Source of the DNA: Promethearchaeota archaeon
Lineage (GTDB): Archaea > Asgardarchaeota > Lokiarchaeia > Sigyniarchaeales > SOKP01
Length of the DNA stretch: 28,626 bases
NCBI GenBank assembly: GCA_008080735.1
Contig: SHMW01000055.1
Coordinates: 1 to 28,626, forward strand
Direction: 5' to 3'
Within the stretch, counting starts at the first letter, position 1. The number at the start of each line of letters is the position of its first letter. Of the stretch, positions 124-25,701 are shown one piece after another. Under the pieces are notes generated by a model, which saw only the letters and a program-made list of their open reading frames with translations, ran no database searches and was not told the DNA's origin. Both the position numbers and the translations under genes were made by a program.

Positions 124-1224
124 TTAAAACATGGGATAGGAACCTAAGATTTTGTACCAGATAACATTTTTTTCCATCATTTTTATTACTCTCTGGATTT
201 TCGGACCTTCCTTATCCCCTTCGAAATCCATTAAAAAGATGTATTCCCATCGACCTTTTCTGCGTGGTCTCGATTCTATTTTTAATAAATTTATCTCTGC
301 CTTCGCAAATAGTTCCAATACATTGTAGAGTGCCCCTGGGATGTGTTTAGTAACATAAACGATGGATGTCTTGATTTTCCCTTCTCTTACTTTATTCTCT
401 TTATCAGCTACAATTAGAAATCTGGTATAATTGGAAGGATTATCTTCTATATTTGAGCTTAATAACTTAAGGCCGTGAACCTTAGAGGCAAAATCCGTTC
501 CTATTGCTCCGATTTTTGTATCATTTTTTTCTTTAATGATTTTGACCGCTTCTGCTGTAGAATTCACATTAATCAACTTAGAGTTCGGGAGGTTTGCTTT
601 TAACCAGGATCGTGTCTGAGCAAACGCTTGAGGATGAGAATAGATTTTTTGAATCTTGGAAAGTTCTGCATTCTCTACTCCAATTAAATTTTGTTTAATT
701 CTAAGCTCGATTTCGCCAAAGATCATCAATTCTTTTTCAATGAGTAGATCAAGCGTTTCTCTGACGGTACCTTGTAGACTATTTTCAATCGGGATAACAC
801 CATAATCCAGCACGTTTTTTTCAATATTTTCGAATATCTCTATGATATTTTTACTGGGAATGAATTTGGAACCCGATTTTGGGAAAAATTCGAGTGCAGC
901 TTGATGGGTGAAGGTACCTTCAGGACCTAAGAAACCAATCTTATCTATCCTTCCTTGGATGCGTTTGGAAGCACTCATAATCTCTTTCCAAATCGCTCTA
1001 ATGCTTTCTGCGGGCAAGATTTCAGACTTCTCAATAACTTTTTGGATAACCTCTTCTTCCCGTTTCGGTTGATATGTGTCTAAATCAAGCTCCTTTTTAA
1101 TTTTACCGATACCTTTTACAACTTTTCCTCTTTTATTGAGAAACTCAACAATCTTAAGGTCTATCTCGTTAATCTCTTTCCTTAAACTTTCAAGTTCTTT
1201 TTTATTATCATCTTGATCCATCAT
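124..1224 (-). CDS. pheA: Bifunctional chorismate mutase / prephenate dehydratase (P-protein)
   Basis: N-terminal AroQ CM domain (LRKEINEIDLKIVEFLNKR...REEEV); PDT motifs GPEGTFT, PIENS, SHPQAFAQ, NYTRF; ACT domain with LLKIESRP. Confidence 0.95.
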   Translation of the reverse strand: MMDQDDNKKELESLRKEINEIDLKIVEFLNKRGKVVKGIGKIKKELDLDTYQPKREEEVIQKVIEKSEILPAESIRAIWKEIMSASKRIQGRIDKIGFLGPEGTFTHQAALEFFPKSGSKFIPSKNIIEIFENIEKNVLDYGVIPIENSLQGTVRETLDLLIEKELMIFGEIELRIKQNLIGVENAELSKIQKIYSHPQAFAQTRSWLKANLPNSKLINVNSTAEAVKIIKEKNDTKIGAIGTDFASKVHGLKLLSSNIEDNPSNYTRFLIVADKENKVREGKIKTSIVYVTKHIPGALYNVLELFAKAEINLLKIESRPRRKGRWEYIFLMDFEGDKEGPKIQRVIKMMEKNVIWYKILGSYPMF

Positions 1225-1275: not shown

Positions 1276-2961
1276 TCAAATTCCATCAATAAAATGCTGT
1301 AAATTAATCTCCAGCGCTGCGACCGGAAATTCTAATTTGAATTTATTAAGAACTTCTGGATGTATCTCTCCGATTTCTCCAATTTTCTTATTCCCAATCA
1401 TTATGGTTCCACATCGACCTTCGATATAAGTTGGGTTATTATTCGGCATAATTTCGTAATTTTCAGTATAACCGAGTGCGGTGATAATAAAATCGATGGT
1501 TGATCGTATCTCGGTAAAATCCGCATTTTCGTGATAAGTTGCTGCTGCCAGATGGAGCCTCCTATTAGCTCCCGTCTCCTCAGTTTCATCCAACTGGATG
1601 ATATCTCCCACTTCGAAGATTTTAATTGGTTTTTCTTCAGATCGATTATAACCAATGGTTTCCATTAATTTATGTAATAAGGTGGTTCTGGTCGTATTAT
1701 ATTCCTTCGAAACCGGGTTTTTTATTTGGACCATCTCAGCCTCCTTCTTCTTTTGATTCATAAACTCATAATGACGCGTTTTATTGGTAAGAATGAAGTT
1801 AAGCACTTCCAAATATCCTGCGCCGATCATAATTTTTCTAATTTCATTCGCAAAATTCTGAATGGGATGATATTCTCCTATGCCCCCTTCTCTTACGGTT
1901 TTTGGCAAATTCAAATATCCGTACCCGATAGCACAATCTTCTGTGAAATCAACGGGATGCATGATATCTCCCCGAAATGCGGGTACCCAAACATCCAAGG
2001 CTCCTTTCTTCTTGGATTTCTTCGCATCCATTCGGACTTTTTCGAAACATTTAATCATCTCATCCTGACTCAAATCTAACCCAATATAATCGTTTACATA
2101 ATCGATTGATACTTCCCATTGTTTGGGGTCGAGATTAGGAGTTATTATATCTTTTCCTCCCTGATAATTTACCTCAACGGTCTCTATTTTTGCACCCATA
2201 TCTGCTAAAGTAGTGGAAAGGATATTTAATGCTAAATTAATTGCTTCAAAGTCTGTTCCTGTAATATCTAAGAATAAATTCTCCGTCTCATCTGTCACCG
2301 TGGTAATGACACCATTTATTATTGGAGGGAATGAGAGTACTTGGTCTTTTTTATCAAATATAATTGGATACACGTCTTTCCCTTCAAGGATATGAGCATA
2401 TTCTATTCCTTTTTCATGGACCAGAAGGATCTCTTCCAAATTCATCGGATATCCATCCCCATGGAGAGGTACGAAACTTAAGGATTCAGGATCGACGGCA
2501 GTATATCGGAATGGTGGTTCTATCTTATCAAGATCGTGTACTCCTATTGCGACCTTTTTTCTATCACGTCCAACAGCCCAATGAAGTTGCTCTTGAATAT
2601 TCATAAGTGTTGCGACCTCATCATCATCTAAAAATACTTCTCGTATGACACCCGCAACGATATATGGTCTCACTCGCTTAACTTCGGGATTGACACTTAG
2701 ATTAATTCCGCTAGAGTTCATCTCATAGGCGGGAACGCCTGTCTCAATTTCATAATATCCTTTTAACGCCCGGGCGATACCTTCCGGACTTGCGAAATCA
2801 GGCCGATTTGGATTATATTCTACCTTAATGGTCTGTTCTTCTTCATTCACATCTTCTAAATCAAGACTAATCCACTGCAAATCATATTCTAAATCCTTAA
2901 TATCCAATTCTTTCCCAACTAATTTTTCTAAGCGCTCGATCTTTAACTCTAATGTCGGCAT
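1276..2961 (-). CDS. pheT: Phenylalanine--tRNA ligase beta subunit, archaeal/eukaryotic type
   Basis: PNRPD, RKKVAIGVHDL, SFPPIING, FRGDIMHPVD motifs; GGAGG SD upstream; follows pheS after 18 nt. Confidence 0.96.
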   Translation of the reverse strand: MPTLELKIERLEKLVGKELDIKDLEYDLQWISLDLEDVNEEEQTIKVEYNPNRPDFASPEGIARALKGYYEIETGVPAYEMNSSGINLSVNPEVKRVRPYIVAGVIREVFLDDDEVATLMNIQEQLHWAVGRDRKKVAIGVHDLDKIEPPFRYTAVDPESLSFVPLHGDGYPMNLEEILLVHEKGIEYAHILEGKDVYPIIFDKKDQVLSFPPIINGVITTVTDETENLFLDITGTDFEAINLALNILSTTLADMGAKIETVEVNYQGGKDIITPNLDPKQWEVSIDYVNDYIGLDLSQDEMIKCFEKVRMDAKKSKKKGALDVWVPAFRGDIMHPVDFTEDCAIGYGYLNLPKTVREGGIGEYHPIQNFANEIRKIMIGAGYLEVLNFILTNKTRHYEFMNQKKKEAEMVQIKNPVSKEYNTTRTTLLHKLMETIGYNRSEEKPIKIFEVGDIIQLDETEETGANRRLHLAAATYHENADFTEIRSTIDFIITALGYTENYEIMPNNNPTYIEGRCGTIMIGNKKIGEIGEIHPEVLNKFKLEFPVAALEINLQHFIDGI

Positions 2962-2979: not shown

Positions 2980-4521
2980 TTATTTATATGATTCCTCTCT
3001 GAGCCATTTTATTGGATTTATATATAGATCTCGAATATCTTTCCTTTCGAATTTCAGCATAGCTAAACGCTCTAAACCCAAGCCCCACGCTAAGACTCTT
3101 GTTGGGTTTTTAACTCCCCATGGATATGTAACCTCAGGTCTAAAGATTCCCGATCCTCCCATTTCGAGCCATTCGCCTAATTTATCATAATACACTGCGA
3201 TTTCCATGCTGGGTTCTGTATAAGGAAAAAACCCAGGTCGCGTAATAATTTTTTCAAATCCCATTTTCTTATAGAATTCAGAAATAATTCCAATCAAATC
3301 GCAGAGATTTACATTCTCATCAATGACAATTCCTTCAATCTGAGTAAATTCTGCTAGATGGGATTTATCTACTTTTTCATTTCGAAAAACTCTATCAATG
3401 GAAAAAACTTTCACAGGCATATTATCATTATCTTTATGAAATTTCGCTAACCTTCTTATCGTGGTCGCGGTAGTATGAGTCCTTAACAGCGTTTGTTTTG
3501 CCACGTCCTTATCCCACTCATATCCCCAGCCAGTGGAACCAGAATCTCCGCCGTTTTCGTGCGTGGCTTTTACTGCCTGTACGCGTTCCTTTTCGGGTAA
3601 ATCTGCTTCTTTCGGATTCTCAAGATAGAATGTATCATGTAATTCCCGTGCTGGGTGGTCCTGGGGTTGAAATAAAGCATCAAAATTGAAAAATGCACTT
3701 TCAATTATCGGTCCTCGAATCTCTGTAAATCCCATAGACAAAAAGATTTCGCGAATTTCATTAATCATATTTATAACGGGATGGATTTTTCCCCCTTTCA
3801 AGAGCGGACCTTGTTTCGTGACATCGAATGGTTTTAACTCATAATCCTTCCAGCTACCAGATGTAATCATATCCGAGGTTAGCTTACTAATTCGATGCAG
3901 CTCCTCGATATCAGAGAGTTTTGTATTCTTTCCCTTTTCTGTAAGGAAAATTATTCTCTGAGTCTTTTTTTCCTTCTTGATCAGTTGTCGTTTATTTAGT
4001 AGATCTACATATTTTTTTTCATTTTTAGAAAGATTTGAATAATTAAGGTTAGTCTTATCGCGAAAGATTTTTAGAAACGCCTCTAATTCTGTTTCCGGAA
4101 ATTCCTCTTCGATAAGAAAGATCTTATTCTCTCCAGTAGCTTTGCTCTGAGCGATCCATCTATTTTTTTTCATATAGGATATTCCAATATAGAATAGCTT
4201 CTTATCAAAATCGGAGATCTCCAAGAACTCTTGTAAACTTATTTCCTTAACTTCTTTTTTTAATAATTGTTCAAGAAGTTGTCTTTCTGGAAGCCCCTTT
4301 TGTAAATAGGATTTTCCTTCTTCATTCAAACTTATCTGAAAAATTTCTTGTTCTTCAAAATCCGCCAGATCATGCTTTTTTAATTCATTAATAGCGGACA
4401 TCAACACTATATAATCTAATCCAAGTTTTTCGGAAAATTCTGTGGCGAGAACTTCATCCGATGTTTCCTTTTTAAGAGCCTTAAATACTTCAATCGTCTG
4501 TTTTTCCAGTTTAATAGTCAT
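2980..4521 (-). CDS. pheS: Phenylalanine--tRNA ligase alpha subunit, archaeal long form
   Basis: FFNFDALFQPQDHPARE, LRTHTT, FRNE, FFPYTEPS, GSGIFRPE, WGLGLERLAM; N-terminal extension typical of archaeal/eukaryotic PheRS-alpha. Confidence 0.97.
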   Translation of the reverse strand: MTIKLEKQTIEVFKALKKETSDEVLATEFSEKLGLDYIVLMSAINELKKHDLADFEEQEIFQISLNEEGKSYLQKGLPERQLLEQLLKKEVKEISLQEFLEISDFDKKLFYIGISYMKKNRWIAQSKATGENKIFLIEEEFPETELEAFLKIFRDKTNLNYSNLSKNEKKYVDLLNKRQLIKKEKKTQRIIFLTEKGKNTKLSDIEELHRISKLTSDMITSGSWKDYELKPFDVTKQGPLLKGGKIHPVINMINEIREIFLSMGFTEIRGPIIESAFFNFDALFQPQDHPARELHDTFYLENPKEADLPEKERVQAVKATHENGGDSGSTGWGYEWDKDVAKQTLLRTHTTATTIRRLAKFHKDNDNMPVKVFSIDRVFRNEKVDKSHLAEFTQIEGIVIDENVNLCDLIGIISEFYKKMGFEKIITRPGFFPYTEPSMEIAVYYDKLGEWLEMGGSGIFRPEVTYPWGVKNPTRVLAWGLGLERLAMLKFERKDIRDLYINPIKWLREESYK

Positions 4522-4547: not shown

Positions 4548-4583
4548 TATATATAATTTCTCTAAATTATTAATCTATATAAA
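4548..4583 (-). promoter_or_regulatory. Two TATA-like boxes proximal to pheS
   Basis: Minus strand TTTATATA (4583-4576, preceded by CCAAAAA) and TTATATATA (4556-4548, about 27 nt before the pheS ATG); AT-rich context weakens the call. Confidence 0.4.
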
Positions 4584-4696
4584 TTTTTGGATTTAAGTGG
4601 CTCTATCTTTAAGCAGAACGTATTTAGAATGATCTATCATCAATTTGGGGGACTTTTAACTGTACATAATGAAAAAGATCTAATTAATTCGAGTAG

Positions 4697-4754
4697 AAAA
4701 AATTTCCGTAGCCAAGGGAACGTTAATAAATCGAAATTTTAGTATTCCCTTGGC
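4697..4754 (-). terminator. Candidate attenuator hairpin plus U-tract in the pheS leader
   Basis: Perfect 10-bp inverted repeat GCCAAGGGAA (4754-4745) / TTCCCTTGGC (4720-4711) with a 24-nt loop containing the leader stop codon; U6 at 4702-4697. Confidence 0.55.
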
Positions 4755-4831
4755 AAAATAAAGAATTTAAAGAATCCAAAAAATGAATTTGGCAGAACTT
4801 GACTTTCTGAAAATTTGTTATCCAAAACCAT
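4739..4831 (-). CDS. Putative Phe-rich leader peptide MVLDNKFSESQVLPNSFFGFFKFFILPREY (30 aa; 35 aa if started at in-frame ATG 4846)
   Basis: Hand translation; TTT TTT GGA TTC TTT AAA TTC TTT at 4783-4760 (6 Phe in 8 codons); same strand as and upstream of pheS-pheT-pheA; overlaps hairpin arm; TATA-like box about 30 nt upstream. Confidence 0.6.
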   Translation of the reverse strand: MVLDNKFSESQVLPNSFFGFFKFFILPREY

Positions 4832-4857
4832 TTTTAGTTCATTCATTTCAAAATCAT

Positions 4858-4866
4858 GTATAAAAG
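4858..4866 (-). promoter_or_regulatory. TATA-like box for the leader transcript
   Basis: CTTTTATAC on minus strand; archaeal spacing would put the TSS a few nt before ATG 4831 (near-leaderless initiation). Confidence 0.4.
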
Positions 4867-5001
4867 TTAAAGGTTTGTTAAAAATTTTGGTGAAATGAAT
4901 CTAATTATTCGATTTTGACCCTATAGGACTAATTTTCTAATCTTACTGGAATCACCCACAGAACTAAAGGGTTTAAATAATATTCAAGAATTTGGTGTAT
5001 A

Positions 5002-5442
5002 TTATTTTATATCTTTTCTTATAGTTGTGGAGCTTATCTTTTCATTTTTCTCATTTTTGATGATTGGAATAACTACTATTACCAAAGGAGGAAATCCTTT
5101 TTCTCTCCTTTTTTCATTTATCTTGAGGGCGGTAGAATACGTTTCTTGGCTCACGACTAATCCTTGATATTTTTCTTCCTTGATTGGTGGTCCATATGGT
5201 TCATTGAGCTCGACAATTTTTACGCGATCGAGGTCAGCGAATGATGATATGAATTTTTCGATATTGTTTTTTCTTGTTTCATAACCCTCGAGCTTTTGAG
5301 AATATTTTTTATTCTTTAGTAAGTCCTCTGTTGCCAACCCAATTACGATTTTTTCTGACACTTTTAAAGCAGTTTTGATGAGCAACCTATGTCCTTCATG
5401 TAAATGATCAAAAGTTCCGCCCAGTCCAACCAAGTCAAACAT
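5002..5442 (-). CDS. coaD: Phosphopantetheine adenylyltransferase, archaeal/eukaryotic type
   Basis: GGTFDHLHEGH (HxGH), VVSQET, KISSTTIR; ATG 5442 preferred over GTG 5454, which lies in an AGTGA SD-like motif. Confidence 0.9.
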   Translation of the reverse strand: MFDLVGLGGTFDHLHEGHRLLIKTALKVSEKIVIGLATEDLLKNKKYSQKLEGYETRKNNIEKFISSFADLDRVKIVELNEPYGPPIKEEKYQGLVVSQETYSTALKINEKRREKGFPPLVIVVIPIIKNEKNEKISSTTIRKDIK

Positions 5443-5509
5443 AAAAATTATCACTAATTTAATTGAAATAAGAAAAATTAATTTTCTCTAATTAAAGACC
5501 ATTAAAAAA

Positions 5510-11947: not shown

Positions 11948-13048
11948 ATGTCATTATCTTTAGATGAAAAAATTGAATTACTTAAAGAAGTGGGAGAGGA
12001 GATCATCGAATTGGATGATCTACGCGAAATGTTGCGATGGAAGGAAGAGCATAATAAAGAAATTATCGCATATGACGGTTTTGAACCTTCGGGGAATATT
12101 CATATTGCCCAGGGGCTACTAAGAGCGATTAACGTGAATAAACTTACCAAGGCTGGGGTTAAGTTCAAATTCCTAGTGGCCGATTGGCATGCTGCCGCAA
12201 ATCAAAAATTCGGTGGAGATCTTGAGGTCATCAAAAAAGTCGGAGATTTTTTCATTGAAGTTTGGAAAGTGTGTGATATGGATTTAAGCCAAGTCGAATT
12301 TATCTATGCTTCCGAATTAGTTAAAAATTCCGAATACTGGGAATTGGTCTTAAAAATCGCGATAAATAATACATTAAATCGAATCATAAGATGTACCCAA
12401 ATTATGGGAAGAGAGGAGTCTGAAGCGTTATCAGCATCGCAAATCCTCTATCCCTTGATGCAAGCTGCGGATATTTTTTACCTTGATGCTGACATTTGTC
12501 AATTAGGATTAGATCAAAGAAGAGTTAATATGCTCGCAAGAGAAGTTGCGAGTGTACTAAATCGACCAAAACCGGTGGCAATTCATCACCATATGCTTAT
12601 GGGTTTACTTTCACCTCCCGATTCAGAGGCTGAGGGGGTTGATCGAGTAATAAAACTAAAGATGTCAAAATCCAATCCCGATTCTGCGATCTTTATGTTG
12701 GATAGTGCGAAAGATGTTAAGAGGAAGATAAATAAGGCCTATTGTCCACCCGAACAAGCATCAGATAATCCAGTCTTAGAATATTGTAAATATATCATTT
12801 TTGAATTAGTGGATAATTTTTATGTGGAACGACCAGTAAAATACGGTGGCGATGTAGAATATTCCTCTTATCAAGAACTAGAAGAAGCTTATGTACAAGG
12901 AGATCTGAGTCCGCCTGATTTAAAGCCTGCGGTTTCCAAATATATTAATCAATTTCTAGAGCCCGTCAGAAAACATTTCGAGACTAATGATAAAGCCAAA
13001 AAACTATATCAATTTGTTCAAAAAGAATACAAGAAGTATCATCAATAA
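11948..13048 (+). CDS. tyrS: Tyrosine--tRNA ligase, archaeal type
   Basis: YDGFEPSG, HIAQ (HIGH-like), YPLMQAADI, GLDQR, KMSKS. Confidence 0.95.
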   Translation: MSLSLDEKIELLKEVGEEIIELDDLREMLRWKEEHNKEIIAYDGFEPSGNIHIAQGLLRAINVNKLTKAGVKFKFLVADWHAAANQKFGGDLEVIKKVGDFFIEVWKVCDMDLSQVEFIYASELVKNSEYWELVLKIAINNTLNRIIRCTQIMGREESEALSASQILYPLMQAADIFYLDADICQLGLDQRRVNMLAREVASVLNRPKPVAIHHHMLMGLLSPPDSEAEGVDRVIKLKMSKSNPDSAIFMLDSAKDVKRKINKAYCPPEQASDNPVLEYCKYIIFELVDNFYVERPVKYGGDVEYSSYQELEEAYVQGDLSPPDLKPAVSKYINQFLEPVRKHFETNDKAKKLYQFVQKEYKKYHQ

Positions 13049-15908: not shown

Positions 15909-17642
15909 ATGAGTATTTCATCTAAAGAAAAGGATGCCCTAAAAAATCTCCAAATTGAGATCGGAGGAAATATTCCCCACGTTGATGAACTAAAATCTTA
16001 TACTATCGGTTATCAAACCAAAAATAATAATGTATCTGGGTTGTGTTTATTTTCTTGTGGATTAGATACAATTCCTAAAGAGATAGAGCAGTTAGATCAA
16101 TTAGAAACACTTTATTTACGGGGAAATAACGTCATAGACTTTTCCGAAATCACCTGCACATTAAACTTATTGAAATCCATAGATATTAGCGAAAATCGAC
16201 TGCACTATATCCCAGATACGATCATCTCTCTCGATGCTTTAGAGGAATTACATATTGAAACTAATAATTTAAAACACCTTCCCGAAAATATTGGAAAACT
16301 CAGAAACCTTGAATATCTAGATATTAGCGGCAACAAATTAACAGAGCTCCCAGAGTCGATTAGCAATTTGGATAAATTAAAGTTTTTAGATTTGAGTAAT
16401 AATGAAATAAATAAATTACCGCGCTCTATTGGTGCTTTACATTCACTTCAGTTTCTTTATCTTGGAAATAATAACTTAAGAACGCTTCCAGAATCAATTG
16501 GATTTTTAAAGTCGTTAAAACGACTCAATATTCGCAAAAATCTCCTTAATCAGTTACCCAAATCTTTCGGTTCTCTCACATCATTGACATCGTGCTTTTT
16601 AAAAGGCAATAATTTAAAGACTCTTCCTGAATCGATTGGTGGTTTAACTAGCCTAAAATATTTAGGAATAAATTCTAATAATTTAGAAGCCATTCCAGAC
16701 TCTATTGGGTTATTGGATAAATTGGAAAATTTGAGCTTAGGCAATAATGAGCTCACATCTATACCCAAAACGATAGGAAAGCTAAAATCGTTACTTCGCT
16801 TCGACATTCAAAACAACGGAATCAAATCTCTTCCGGCTACATTAGGAGAGTTGAAATTATTAAATTACTTTTGGGCAAATAATAATGCTATAGAGGTATT
16901 GCCCTCCTCCATTGGTAATTTAAAATATCTTTCTTCATTAGATTTAAAACAAAATCAACTAAAAGAGTTGCCCGAAAGTATTGGTAAACTGAGTTCCCTT
17001 TTTGAACTCGATTTATATGATAATAAATTAGAACATCTTCCAAACTCTATCGGTCAACTTGATAATTTGGAGATATTAGATCTTAGTAGTAATAAGTTAT
17101 TAGATCTTCCCGAAACAATTTGTCAATTAAAATCCCTCAAAGAATTAGATTTGTCAACGAATAAAATTAGAACAATCCCTCATTGTATCGGAAAGTTATT
17201 TGACTTAAAGAACTTAATCTTGGGATTCAATAAGCTTAAAGAAATTCCCGAATCTATAGGAAAACTAGAAGAGCTAGAGACTCTTGACTTGGGTAAAAAC
17301 CTTCTTAAAAGCGTTCCAGACTCAATTGGAAATCTCGCTGCTTTAAAATTCTTATATCTGTATTATAATAATCTTAAAAAGATGCCAGATTCAATTAATT
17401 CTTTGACGGAATTAGAATATATCAACCTAAGTAATAATGAGATTGAAAGTCTTCCAGAATCCTTAGAATCTCTAAAAAAGGTCGAATACTTTCTTATTAA
17501 ATCCAATAAATTAACTCACCTCTCAGAATCAGTTAAGGAAATGGAGGCCTTGAAGCATTTAGATGTAGAAAGGAATAATATTCGAGAAGAACCAAAATTT
17601 TTTAGTGAATTAAGAGAGCAAGGAGTAAAGATAATTAAATAA
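15909..17642 (+). CDS. Leucine-rich repeat protein (about 22-23 repeats of 23 aa)
   Basis: Regular LxxLxLxxNxLxxLPxSIGxL repeats across almost the whole protein; no signal peptide or TM seen. Confidence 0.95.
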   Translation: MSISSKEKDALKNLQIEIGGNIPHVDELKSYTIGYQTKNNNVSGLCLFSCGLDTIPKEIEQLDQLETLYLRGNNVIDFSEITCTLNLLKSIDISENRLHYIPDTIISLDALEELHIETNNLKHLPENIGKLRNLEYLDISGNKLTELPESISNLDKLKFLDLSNNEINKLPRSIGALHSLQFLYLGNNNLRTLPESIGFLKSLKRLNIRKNLLNQLPKSFGSLTSLTSCFLKGNNLKTLPESIGGLTSLKYLGINSNNLEAIPDSIGLLDKLENLSLGNNELTSIPKTIGKLKSLLRFDIQNNGIKSLPATLGELKLLNYFWANNNAIEVLPSSIGNLKYLSSLDLKQNQLKELPESIGKLSSLFELDLYDNKLEHLPNSIGQLDNLEILDLSSNKLLDLPETICQLKSLKELDLSTNKIRTIPHCIGKLFDLKNLILGFNKLKEIPESIGKLEELETLDLGKNLLKSVPDSIGNLAALKFLYLYYNNLKKMPDSINSLTELEYINLSNNEIESLPESLESLKKVEYFLIKSNKLTHLSESVKEMEALKHLDVERNNIREEPKFFSELREQGVKIIK

Positions 17643-23878: not shown

Positions 23879-24241
23879 ATGACTGAAGATCAATTTCAGT
23901 ATCTATTACAGACGATTTTTGACAATATTGACGGAGTACGCTCAGCGGCGATAGTATCTCAAGAGGGTTTAATTGTGAGCTCCATCTTAGAGGAAGGAAT
24001 ATCGGAAATTAAATTAGCAGCGATGACCGCGGCGATACTTTCAGTATCCGAACGGGTTCTACATGAACTTAAATCGGGAATGCTTGATGTATGCATCTTA
24101 CAAGGAGATGATGGAAATTTTGTAGTTATGGACGCAGGAACAGATTTAATCATTGCTGTCTGCTTAAATATCGACGCACGGATGGATACGTGTTTCATTG
24201 AAATGCGAAAGGCAGCAGAACAACTCAAAAGTATATCTTAA
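23879..24241 (+). CDS. Roadblock/LC7 (LAMTOR2-like) domain protein
   Basis: GVRSAAIVSQEGLIVSS, KLAAMTAAILSVSER, ILQGDDG; 120-aa stand-alone domain. Confidence 0.9.
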   Translation: MTEDQFQYLLQTIFDNIDGVRSAAIVSQEGLIVSSILEEGISEIKLAAMTAAILSVSERVLHELKSGMLDVCILQGDDGNFVVMDAGTDLIIAVCLNIDARMDTCFIEMRKAAEQLKSIS

Positions 24242-24390
24242 CCCTCCTCTTTTTTCCCCTTTCCAATTATTTATTAATAATTTAATAAATCTAAAAATTC
24301 GCACTCTATTTCTTTTAAAATAGGAAATTATTTTTTATATTCATATACACGATTAAACTATAAAAAATACACATATTTTAAGTGATTTTT

Positions 24391-25701
24391 TTGGCAAAGG
24401 CAGCTGAAATGAATAGTGATGATGGTTTTAAGATGGGAGATCCATATTATTGTCCAGAGTGTGAGAGAAATCATATAAAAGGACAAATCTATAAGGATCA
24501 TTTGCAATACGCTCAGGTTCCAGATATTCAAGACGAGGAAAAAGCAGAAGAGATAGAAGCAGAAAAGGATGAGGATATCGAAGAGGAAGATCTTGAAGAT
24601 GAGGAAGATGAAGAATATGAGGATGATGATTTCGAGGAGGAATATGACGACGATTTTGATGGCGTTGATGAGGAAGAGGAAGAATATGAGGATGATGATA
24701 TAGATGATGATGATGATGATGATATAGAAGTATATGGATCCGATGAAAGAGGTGTTGAAGAATGCATTGAACAAGTGAAGGATCTTACTGGTGTGGGAGA
24801 AGCGACCCTGAGGAAGCTAATCAAGGCGGGCTTTAATAGTCTTGAATCGATTGCCTACACTCCACCGTCCATCATTCAAGAAGATAGTGGACTCGGAGAG
24901 AAAACGACCGCAAAATTGATTAAACAGGCAATGAAACGTTTAAACGTAGGTTTCAAATCTGCAGAAACGTTATGGGAGCATAGAAAAAACATTGCACGAA
25001 TTACCACGGGCAGTCAAGAACTCGATAACCTCTTAGCTGGGGGTGTCGAGACTGGTGCGATGATTGAATTTTTTGGAGAATTTCGCACGGGCAAAACCCA
25101 AATAATGCATCAATTATGTGTTAATGTCCAATTACCGAAAGAGAAAGGAGGGATAGAAGGTGCTGCATTATATATCGATACTGAAGGGACTTTCCGCCCG
25201 GAAAGAATAATTCAAATGGCAGAAGCGCTCGATTTGGATTATAATAAAGTGCTCAAGAATATTGTATTTGGACGGGCATACAACTCTGACCATCAGATCC
25301 TCTTAGCAAAAGAAGCTATTAACATCATAAAAGAGCGAAATATAAAATTGATTGTGATTGATTCTCTTATCGGCCATTTTAGAAGCGAATATATCGGACG
25401 AGGTACGCTCGCAACTCGTCAGCAAATATTAAACCAACATCTACACGACTTACTCCGTCTATGTGATATCTATCCAGATTTGGCAATTGTCGTGACCAAT
25501 CAAGTACAAGCAAAACCAGACGTGTTTTATGGGAACCCGCTTCAAGCCGCGGGAGGAAATATAATCGCACACGGTTCTACTATTCGAATCTATCTCAGAA
25601 AAGGGAAGGGAGAGCAGCGAGTTGCAAAAATTGTGGATGCGCCTCATTTACCAGAGGGTGAAGCAGTTTTTAGTATCACAGGAAACGGGATTTCAGATTA
25701 G
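24391..25701 (+). CDS. radA: DNA repair/recombination protein RadA with N-terminal zinc-finger and acidic extension
   Basis: HhH domain, GFKSA polymerisation motif, Walker [27 protein letters not shown]; start uncertain (GTG 24382, TTG 24391, ATG 24409). Confidence 0.95.
24598..24723 (+). repeat. In-frame acidic direct repeats and (GAT)7 tract within radA
   Basis: 33-nt repeat GATGAGGAAGA(T/G)GAAGAATATGAGGATGATGAT at 24598 and 24667 (1 mismatch); (GAT)7 at 24703-24723. Confidence 0.8.

Follow-up and report, generated by a model that had tools for sequence, protein, structure and literature searches.

Gene organization around pheS

The window analysed here is a 28,626-nt stretch of an archaeal genome of 4.1 Mb and 34% GC, whose assembly is 93% complete with 7% contamination. 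Its closest relatives carry the labels Promethearchaeota/Promethearchaeia, which correspond to Lokiarchaeia, and its family, here termed f1, is probably Sigynarchaeaceae. The minus strand of the window carries coaD, a 480-nt gap, and then pheS, pheT and pheA (Table 1). A first-pass annotation had proposed a phenylalanine attenuator in this gap, in front of a pheS-pheT-pheA operon, and the profile matches confirmed the identities of the three genes, with pheT of the archaeal type. The gene coaD also lies upstream of pheS in other Asgard families, an ancient synteny. The gene pheA comes after pheT in 7/10 family f1 loci, an arrangement not seen at any of the Asgard loci retrieved from outside the family. 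The Phe leader described below is kept at one locus (L100) where pheA is not adjacent, and pheST is thus a sufficient target of the leader.

Typical Asgard content elsewhere in the window includes a 577-aa leucine-rich-repeat protein (15909-17642, plus strand), a roadblock-like protein (23879-24241, plus) and a large membrane-anchored protein truncated where the contig ends (25848-28625, minus). A RadA-like recombinase (24382-25701, minus) has a long acidic low-complexity N-terminal extension with a small Cys/His motif before it. The 271-nt gap upstream of a tyrS-like gene (11948-13048, plus) contains a weak TTG-started Tyr-containing ORF and no convincing leader.

Table 1. Features of the pheS locus in window coordinates
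Feature	Position	Strand	Evidence or remark
pheA, chorismate mutase/prephenate dehydratase	124..1224	-	NF008865 over cut-off; N-terminal chorismate mutase matches
pheT, archaeal-type beta subunit	1276..2961	-	TIGR00471 over cut-off
pheS, phenylalanine--tRNA ligase alpha	2980..4521	-	NCBIfam NF003210/TIGR00468 over cut-off
Proximal pheS promoter, BRE + TTTATATA	4576..4590	-	Family consensus CGAAAG-A-TTTAAATA; downstream of leader
Putative transcription-factor site, two degenerate motif copies	4603..4646	-	Family consensus TTCTAATTCAAGAT; alignment; weak match in source genome
U6 tract, candidate pause/termination site	4697..4702	-	8 nt past P2 3' arm
Hairpin P2	4704..4758	-	5' arm 4754-4745, 3' arm 4720-4711, 3-nt bulge 4710-4708, short lower stem
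Leader ORF	4739..4846	-	30 aa from ATG 4831 or 35 aa from ATG 4846
Phe block	4760..4783	-	Phe in 6/8 codons in source genome
Helix P1, 3' strand	4772..4792 (core 4788-4779)	-	Directly before and overlapping first Phe codons
Helix P1, 5' strand	4823..4849	-	Contains both candidate leader starts; MFE fold of window and family duplexes
Distal promoter-like motif, A-rich BRE + TTTTTAAC	4877..4890	-	Family consensus AAAATTTTTTAG
coaD, upstream neighbour	5002..5454	-	NF001985

A Phe-rich leader frame is conserved upstream of pheS

The short minus-strand ORF that the first-pass annotation had placed in the gap, with two candidate ATG codons, a TAA stop (4741-4739) and six Phe in eight codons, was correctly located. 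ATG 4831 occupies the family-modal start position, and ATG 4846 is the homologue of the 5'-proximal AUG of relatives. Taken alone, the Phe run is only moderately unusual for a genome of this base composition: among 6779 intergenic uORFs of the source genome, four reach 6 Phe in 8 codons.

We therefore give most weight to conservation. Among the pheS loci collected across family f1, 67 had enough upstream DNA, and the element was present in all of them (62 typical and five variant, the latter in genus g8), a count whose significance is overstated by the relatedness of the loci. The typical element lies 144-237 nt (mostly 207-237 nt) before the pheS ATG. Two other families, f2 and f19 (six loci), lacked it, as did 13 further Asgard loci; for f2, the cultured Prometheoarchaeum-type family, the search covered 14 genomes. 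The core pattern occurs once per genome in 18/27 family f1 genomes and in 0/19 sister-family genomes; a search of the source genome for further copies of the hairpin P2 gave chance matches only, one of them inside cysK, and the motif is single-copy. The presence of the element at 67/67 loci, together with the in-frame Phe excess and the stop avoidance described next, places it beyond chance. The pattern holds genus by genus, one g3 locus excepted, and the element persists where coaD is not the neighbour.

The leader frame was analysed at 59 complete loci from ten genera. Over the 25 codons before the Pro codon that follows the Phe block, it contained two stops in 1475 codons, as against 107 and 143 in the other two frames, and it was open in 57/59 loci; a control stretch upstream of the start gave 89, 80 and 93 stops per 885 in the three frames. 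The N-terminal sequence itself is saturated, with a cross-genus identity of 34% (nt) and 9% (aa) over codons -25 to -14. A start codon stands exactly 26 codons before Pro, the position of ATG 4831, in 36/59 loci (ATG in 24, TTG in 12), and some start codon lies within the open frame in 57/59. Because the frame avoids stops despite this saturation, and ATG and TTG starts cluster, the leader is very probably translated.

Clustered Phe codons with frame conservation and TTT/TTC exchange, which had been suggested as something to look for in relatives, were found in family f1. The in-frame Phe codons number 233 versus 128±7 in shuffles, with a mean of 3.9 per ten codons in the block. Codons -8, -7, -6, -4 and -3 encode Phe in 38, 34, 50, 44 and 59 of the 59 loci respectively, the last Phe being invariant, and TTT/TTC exchange is seen at codons -6 and -4. 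The Pro-Arg-Glu (PRE) ending is replaced by PGE, PSE, PRD or PR-stop where pairing allows, and tracks base pairing rather than the peptide. The stop is confined to codons +2 to +6, except that genus g8, which lacks PRE, has its stop just before the stem; in every case the stop position puts a terminating ribosome on the P2 5' arm. Such a pattern, in which length and Phe codons matter and the other residues do not, reads as the signature of a translated leader.

At 17 loci (e.g. L023, L030 and L056), there is also an in-frame 5'-proximal ATG at codon -34, followed three codons on by a stop in 13 of them. This ATG could begin a mini-ORF that precedes the start of the leader, or could merely reflect the pairing of P1; its homologue in the window, ATG 4846, is open.

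Two conserved RNA helices flank the Phe codons

The perfect 10-bp hairpin with the stop codon in its loop, as first proposed, is present in the window. Two features had been overlooked, namely a lower stem of P2 beyond a 3-nt bulge and a second helix, P1, upstream of P2. In P2, pairs 1-6 are kept in 63/63 loci, although genus g8 has C-G, the swapped form, at pair 1, and pair 7 is G-C in 33, A-U in 14 and G-U in 13 of the 63. The bulge is mostly UGC, the lower-stem pair is kept in 62/63 loci, and the loop is free in length and sequence. The local fold has a z of -2.1. No compensatory change was seen at pairs 2-6 across the 63 loci, which suggests a sequence-specific recognition of P2.

P1 covaries across the family. 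Its strands form duplexes of -12.5 kcal/mol with their own partner, -8.1 kcal/mol across genera and -6.5 kcal/mol when shuffled; the own partner beat the cross-genus ones in 55/63 loci, with a peak at that offset only. Several pair types occur per position, in a pair table fitted to the predicted duplex. In the MFE fold of the window, either ATG would be sequestered by P1. Both helices are present in genus g8, but its Phe codons are fewer and its start codon is not constant.

The competing pairings proposed earlier are private to the source genome. The CCAAA/TTTGG stem exists in the window, but TTTGG is seen in only 1/63 loci, and the second GCCAA that could pair with the P2 3' arm is likewise there, with CCAA in only 4/63. 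Alternative duplexes (-7.0 and -6.1 kcal/mol) matched the shuffled value (-6.5 kcal/mol), the 1:3, 2:4 and 3' arm-versus-downstream duplexes all equalling shuffled controls, and no conserved 2:3 antiterminator was found. Masking of the pheS start by the P2 3' arm was rejected, as the arm has no conserved partner near the pheS ATG. The U6 tract past the hairpin was correctly noted but is conserved only in part, a U-run of at least five following P2 in 28/63 loci compared with 5/63 in a control window further on. An Rfam scan gave chance-level matches only (best E 0.68) and no Phe_leader match.

A probable second promoter between the leader and pheS

A TATA-like run does occur at 4865-4857, as the first-pass annotation had noted, but the conserved motif is the distal one of Table 1, further upstream. 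In 42/63 loci this motif (AAAATTTTTTAG) lies 135-141 nt upstream of the Pro codon, whatever the distance to the coaD stop, and recurs before the leuA leader and, in relatives, before ileS and tRNA genes. Because of this fixed distance from the leader and the same motif before the other genes, we read it as the leader's probable promoter, with a predicted transcription start at ~4853 instead of the 5' end near 4835 expected earlier. In one g3 genome (L011), an insertion-sequence-like end replaces the distal motif and the leader is kept.

The earlier reading had also missed a second, strongly conserved promoter between the leader and pheS. In 58/63 loci a textbook BRE-TATA element lies ~120 nt downstream of P2, its TATA 59-65 nt upstream of the pheS ATG, and pheS very probably has its own promoter there. 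The most that the leader could do, therefore, is to govern read-through into a separately promoted operon or to interfere with that operon. The TTCTAATTCAAGAT motif ends 33 nt before the proximal TATA in 24 of its 29 matches and may be a transcription-factor site. It scores weakly, and with low specificity, before aspartyl-tRNA synthetase-like and aspartokinase-like genes of the source genome (contigs C83 and C106).

Cognate leaders precede other amino acid genes

A Trp leader (contig C74, L113) precedes trpB2 in the same genome and is the only uORF of the 6779 with 4 Trp in 8 codons; a Leu run precedes leuA (contig C4, L111) and an Ile run precedes cimA (contig C12, L112). Trp leaders recurred in 13/22 related loci and Ile leaders in 13/14, and U-rich tracts follow both kinds. 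The archaeal-type leuS of a relative (G015, L199) is preceded by a Leu/Val-rich leader ORF and by a hairpin with a U-rich loop. No cognate leader was evident at leuS, valS, cysS, metS, serS, proS, glyS, hisS, asnS or tyrS of the source genome, nor at five valS and four ileS loci of relatives. A PF00133 search of the source genome found valS, leuS, metS and cysS and no ileS, which is probably missing from this assembly. That four amino acids each match their own pathway (pheS, trpB2, leuA and cimA) is the strongest argument for sensing. Along the Trp leader, Trp codons and codons beginning with C take turns almost throughout, which creates UGGC repeats.

Position of the ribosome and the fate of the transcript

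Conservation and the cognate companion leaders together make it very probable that the Phe-rich leader, wired to its hairpin, senses charged tRNA-Phe, and that this sensing affects the pheS-pheT-pheA operon is, in our judgement, highly likely. We examined the geometry by folding 63 loci with a 25-nt ribosome footprint forced unpaired, under assumed bacterial-like limits. When the A site held one of the Phe codons -8 to -4, the P2 core was predicted to stay closed (pairing 0.98-1.0); the value fell to 0.76 for codon -3 and to 0.03 for a ribosome at the stop, where the P2 3' arm was unpaired at 0.58 compared with 0.09 on the Phe codons. The earlier proposal that a ribosome at the stop melts the hairpin, and one on the Phe codons does not, thus holds in this footprint-constrained model, which predicts a two-state geometry rather than an output.

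Our best reading, to which we give an even chance, is that the leader gauges charged tRNA-Phe and gates read-through from the distal promoter into pheS-pheT-pheA, in addition to the separate proximal promoter. Transcription would start near 4853, and a ribosome would translate the ~30-codon leader, a step strongly supported by conservation. When Phe-tRNA is scarce, the ribosome would wait on the Phe codons with P1 open and P2 folded, and the folded P2 would hide its pyrimidine-rich 3' arm while the polymerase passes the U-tract, so that transcription continues. When Phe-tRNA is plentiful, the ribosome would reach the stop, cover the 5' arm, free the 3' arm and the U-rich loop, and depart; P1 would close behind it and hinder reloading, and FttA/aCPSF1 or the U-tract would end the transcript. 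P2 would then serve to protect, opposite to what a terminator hairpin does in bacteria. This termination logic, in which P2 protects, the finishing ribosome exposes and the transcript ends when Phe is plentiful, is the one first proposed; it may be right or wrong with equal probability, and it is the most economical reading of the two-state geometry. FttA/aCPSF1 is encoded in the source genome (TIGR03675 over cut-off). The enzyme favours U-rich RNA lying no more than 36 nt from the growing 3' end, and a coupled ribosome has been hypothesized to compete with and exclude it (PMC11616081).

Several observations weigh against this gating of read-through. The strong conserved downstream promoter could supply pheS without the leader; there is no conserved alternative pairing, the alternative duplexes being no better than shuffled controls; and the U-run varies among loci. 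In either state, FttA would have access to the ~110 nt of untranslated A/U-rich RNA from P2 to the proximal promoter; the footprint model rests on its assumed limits, genus g8 combines both helices with a reduced Phe block and an inconstant start, and the relatedness of the loci means that the counts overstate independence.

The same elements could be wired in the opposite sense, which we consider unlikely. P2 and the U-tract would terminate transcription when the ribosome waits on the Phe codons, and starvation would free the proximal promoter; with Phe plentiful, P2 would be melted and the polymerase would read through and occlude the proximal promoter, making a long, poorly translated RNA. 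Comparable transcription interference is known from yeast SRG1-SER3 and from long undecoded isoforms. The position of P2 directly before U-runs resembles an intrinsic terminator, P2 stays folded exactly while the ribosome is on the Phe codons, and a canonical promoter follows ~120 nt downstream in 58/63 loci; a stalled ribosome should moreover uncouple and so favour FttA, if the hypothesis in PMC11616081 applies. The bulged base and the long variable loop are, however, atypical of terminators, and the poor translation of the read-through RNA is assumed.

Rather less probable is a role in RNA stability or processing, with P1 shielding the 5' end and P2 blocking 5'-3' decay or marking a cleavage site, so that the long pheST-pheA RNA survives only while the ribosome is stalled. 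That P1 begins at the predicted 5' end, that no antiterminator fold exists and that beta-CASP nucleases are encoded would all suit such a role, but the enrichment of U-runs right after P2 points to an end-forming site.

A further alternative came from the tRNA genes. The tRNA-Phe(GAA) gene of the source genome (contig C77:3994-4097, minus strand, L114), which ARAGORN misses because of an intron in the D-arm, has the acceptor stem GCCAAGG/UCUUGGC. All five family f1 tRNA-Phe genes recovered begin with GCCAAGG, whereas sister families have other stems; the genes were recovered by a DNA search. Introns lie at varying positions in the relatives' tRNA-Phe genes. Contig C5 carries a separate cluster of atypical, AT-richer tRNA genes, unlike those of the host, and is possibly viral or a contaminant.

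Pairs 1-7 of P2 are identical to the family tRNA-Phe acceptor stem GCCAAGG/(U/C)CUUGGC, including the G-C/G-U variation at pair 7, and P2 might accordingly be an acceptor-stem mimic to which PheRS or a tRNA-processing enzyme binds. This would add autoregulation of the kind known from the E. coli thrS operator. The sister families, with their different stems, lack the motif (0/19 genomes), the constancy of pairs 2-6 would fit, and the rough post-hoc chance of the match is ~1%. Against this, the base after the stem is U (59/63) and not an A discriminator, P2 has no CCA end, T-loop or anticodon loop, and pair 7 does not track the tRNA of its own genome (the source genome, G000, and G061 differ). 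At P2 pair 1, genus g8 has the swapped base pair although G-C is retained in its tRNA; the match between the G015 leuS leader hairpin and tRNA-Leu does not extend past 4 bp; and archaeal PheRS relies mainly on the tRNA anticodon. Given the missing discriminator, CCA and anticodon loop, the untracked pair 7 and the departure of g8, we treat the acceptor-stem identity as a lead only, and mimicry as improbable.

Least credible is a non-regulatory small protein gene or a plain coaD terminator with Phe codons as a by-product of U-rich DNA. Such DNA does yield Phe codons, the PRE ending is conserved and coaD lies just upstream in many relatives, but the protein is unconserved (9% aa) apart from Phe, its ending varies where pairing allows, the Phe enrichment is frame-specific, the companion leaders match their own amino acids and the element persists without coaD as neighbour.

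Three other candidates were tested. A programmed frameshift into pheS was rejected: with a single locus excepted, the other frames run for only 0-49 codons before they close, and the distances to the ATG spread over the three residues modulo 3 (25/19/19). A T-box riboswitch had no Rfam match, and its UGG lies inside the stem and is followed by C, leaving no toehold for tRNA ACCA. An arrest-peptide sensor like tnaC or speFL is at odds with C-terminal residues that vary with pairing, stops spread over +2 to +6 and the lack of PRE in g8.

Relation to known leader-peptide systems

Leader-peptide attenuation is textbook bacterial regulation, and E. coli pheM-pheST and pheL-pheA are leader-peptide transcription attenuators (Rfam Phe_leader). 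The Asgard element shares with them a small, unannotated ORF that is rich in Phe and precedes the genes for the same enzymes, the proximity of the sensing codons to RNA helices, with P1 in place of the 1:2 pause hairpin, and a U-run after the last helix. It differs in its archaeal host and promoters, in a leader of ~30 aa with the Phe codons at the 3' end, in a spacer of 170-200 nt with a second promoter, and in lacking a conserved 2:3 antiterminator and an Rfam match. Its stop lies inside the last hairpin, so that a finished ribosome would melt that hairpin rather than permit it. Set beside a classical attenuator, the locus has the short ORF before cognate genes, its translation supported by conservation, and the run of cognate Phe codons; it has neither a mutually exclusive 2:3 antiterminator and 3:4 terminator nor a terminator forming at the stop, where P2 is melted in the model and a U-run of at least five follows in under half of the loci. 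With no antiterminator and a last hairpin that the finished ribosome would melt, the element should not be classed with the classical attenuators.

Its logic comes nearer to that of factor-dependent uORF attenuators such as Salmonella mgtL-mgtA and E. coli tnaC and speFL. In these, as would be the case here, the position of the uORF ribosome decides the access of a termination factor to naked RNA, with no terminator/antiterminator pair. In our proposal, however, the factor would be the nuclease FttA and not Rho, and sensing would rely on hungry codons and not on an arrest peptide, the C-terminal residues being variable. Reportedly, Xie and Reeve (2005) described in Methanothermobacter trpY a Met-Trp minigene of two codons overlapping the ribosome-binding site, said to be proposed for translational control of the repressor by sensing the cognate amino acid. 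It resembles the present leader as an archaeal mini-ORF with a cognate codon proposed as an amino acid sensor, but has two codons and no helices or termination. Premature termination by a uORF and Rho in Mycobacterium tuberculosis is cited in PMC13675443. Poly-Cys leaderless short ORFs of mycobacteria are the subject of bioRxiv 10.1101/834739. Such ORFs are likewise near-leaderless with cognate codons at the 3' end before cognate genes; they reportedly act on translation of the next gene, whereas the Asgard pheS ATG is ~215 nt away.

Our literature search, with subscription journals mostly outside its coverage, found no case of leader-peptide attenuation in Asgard or other archaea, and the passages checked were bacterial. 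The Asgard element is real and conserved, and very probably a gauge of Phe-tRNA. A bolder and rather doubtful extension is that family f1 evolved its own class of ribosome-read gauges, for Phe, Trp, Leu and Ile, working through the CPSF-like FttA, in which, at pheS, the upstream uORF transcript acts on the second promoter further downstream, and PheRS possibly reads a stem resembling tRNA-Phe. If true, this would be a mechanism between bacterial attenuation and eukaryotic uORF and transcription-interference control. The host lineage is the one closest to eukaryotes, so that the element bears on the origin of uORF control. A natural switch dependent on ribosome position would directly evidence that archaea put transcription-translation coupling to regulatory use, and a defined 200-nt element would make the hypothesis that ribosomes exclude FttA (PMC11616081) testable.

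Other arrangements occur upstream of pheS outside family f1. In family f19 (L085-L089 and L119), a conserved 5' region of ~70 nt, which contains no Phe run, comes after a distal-type TATA. In four other Asgard families (L125, L126, L129 and L130), a different short motif containing GATGCC is shared 100-130 nt before pheS.
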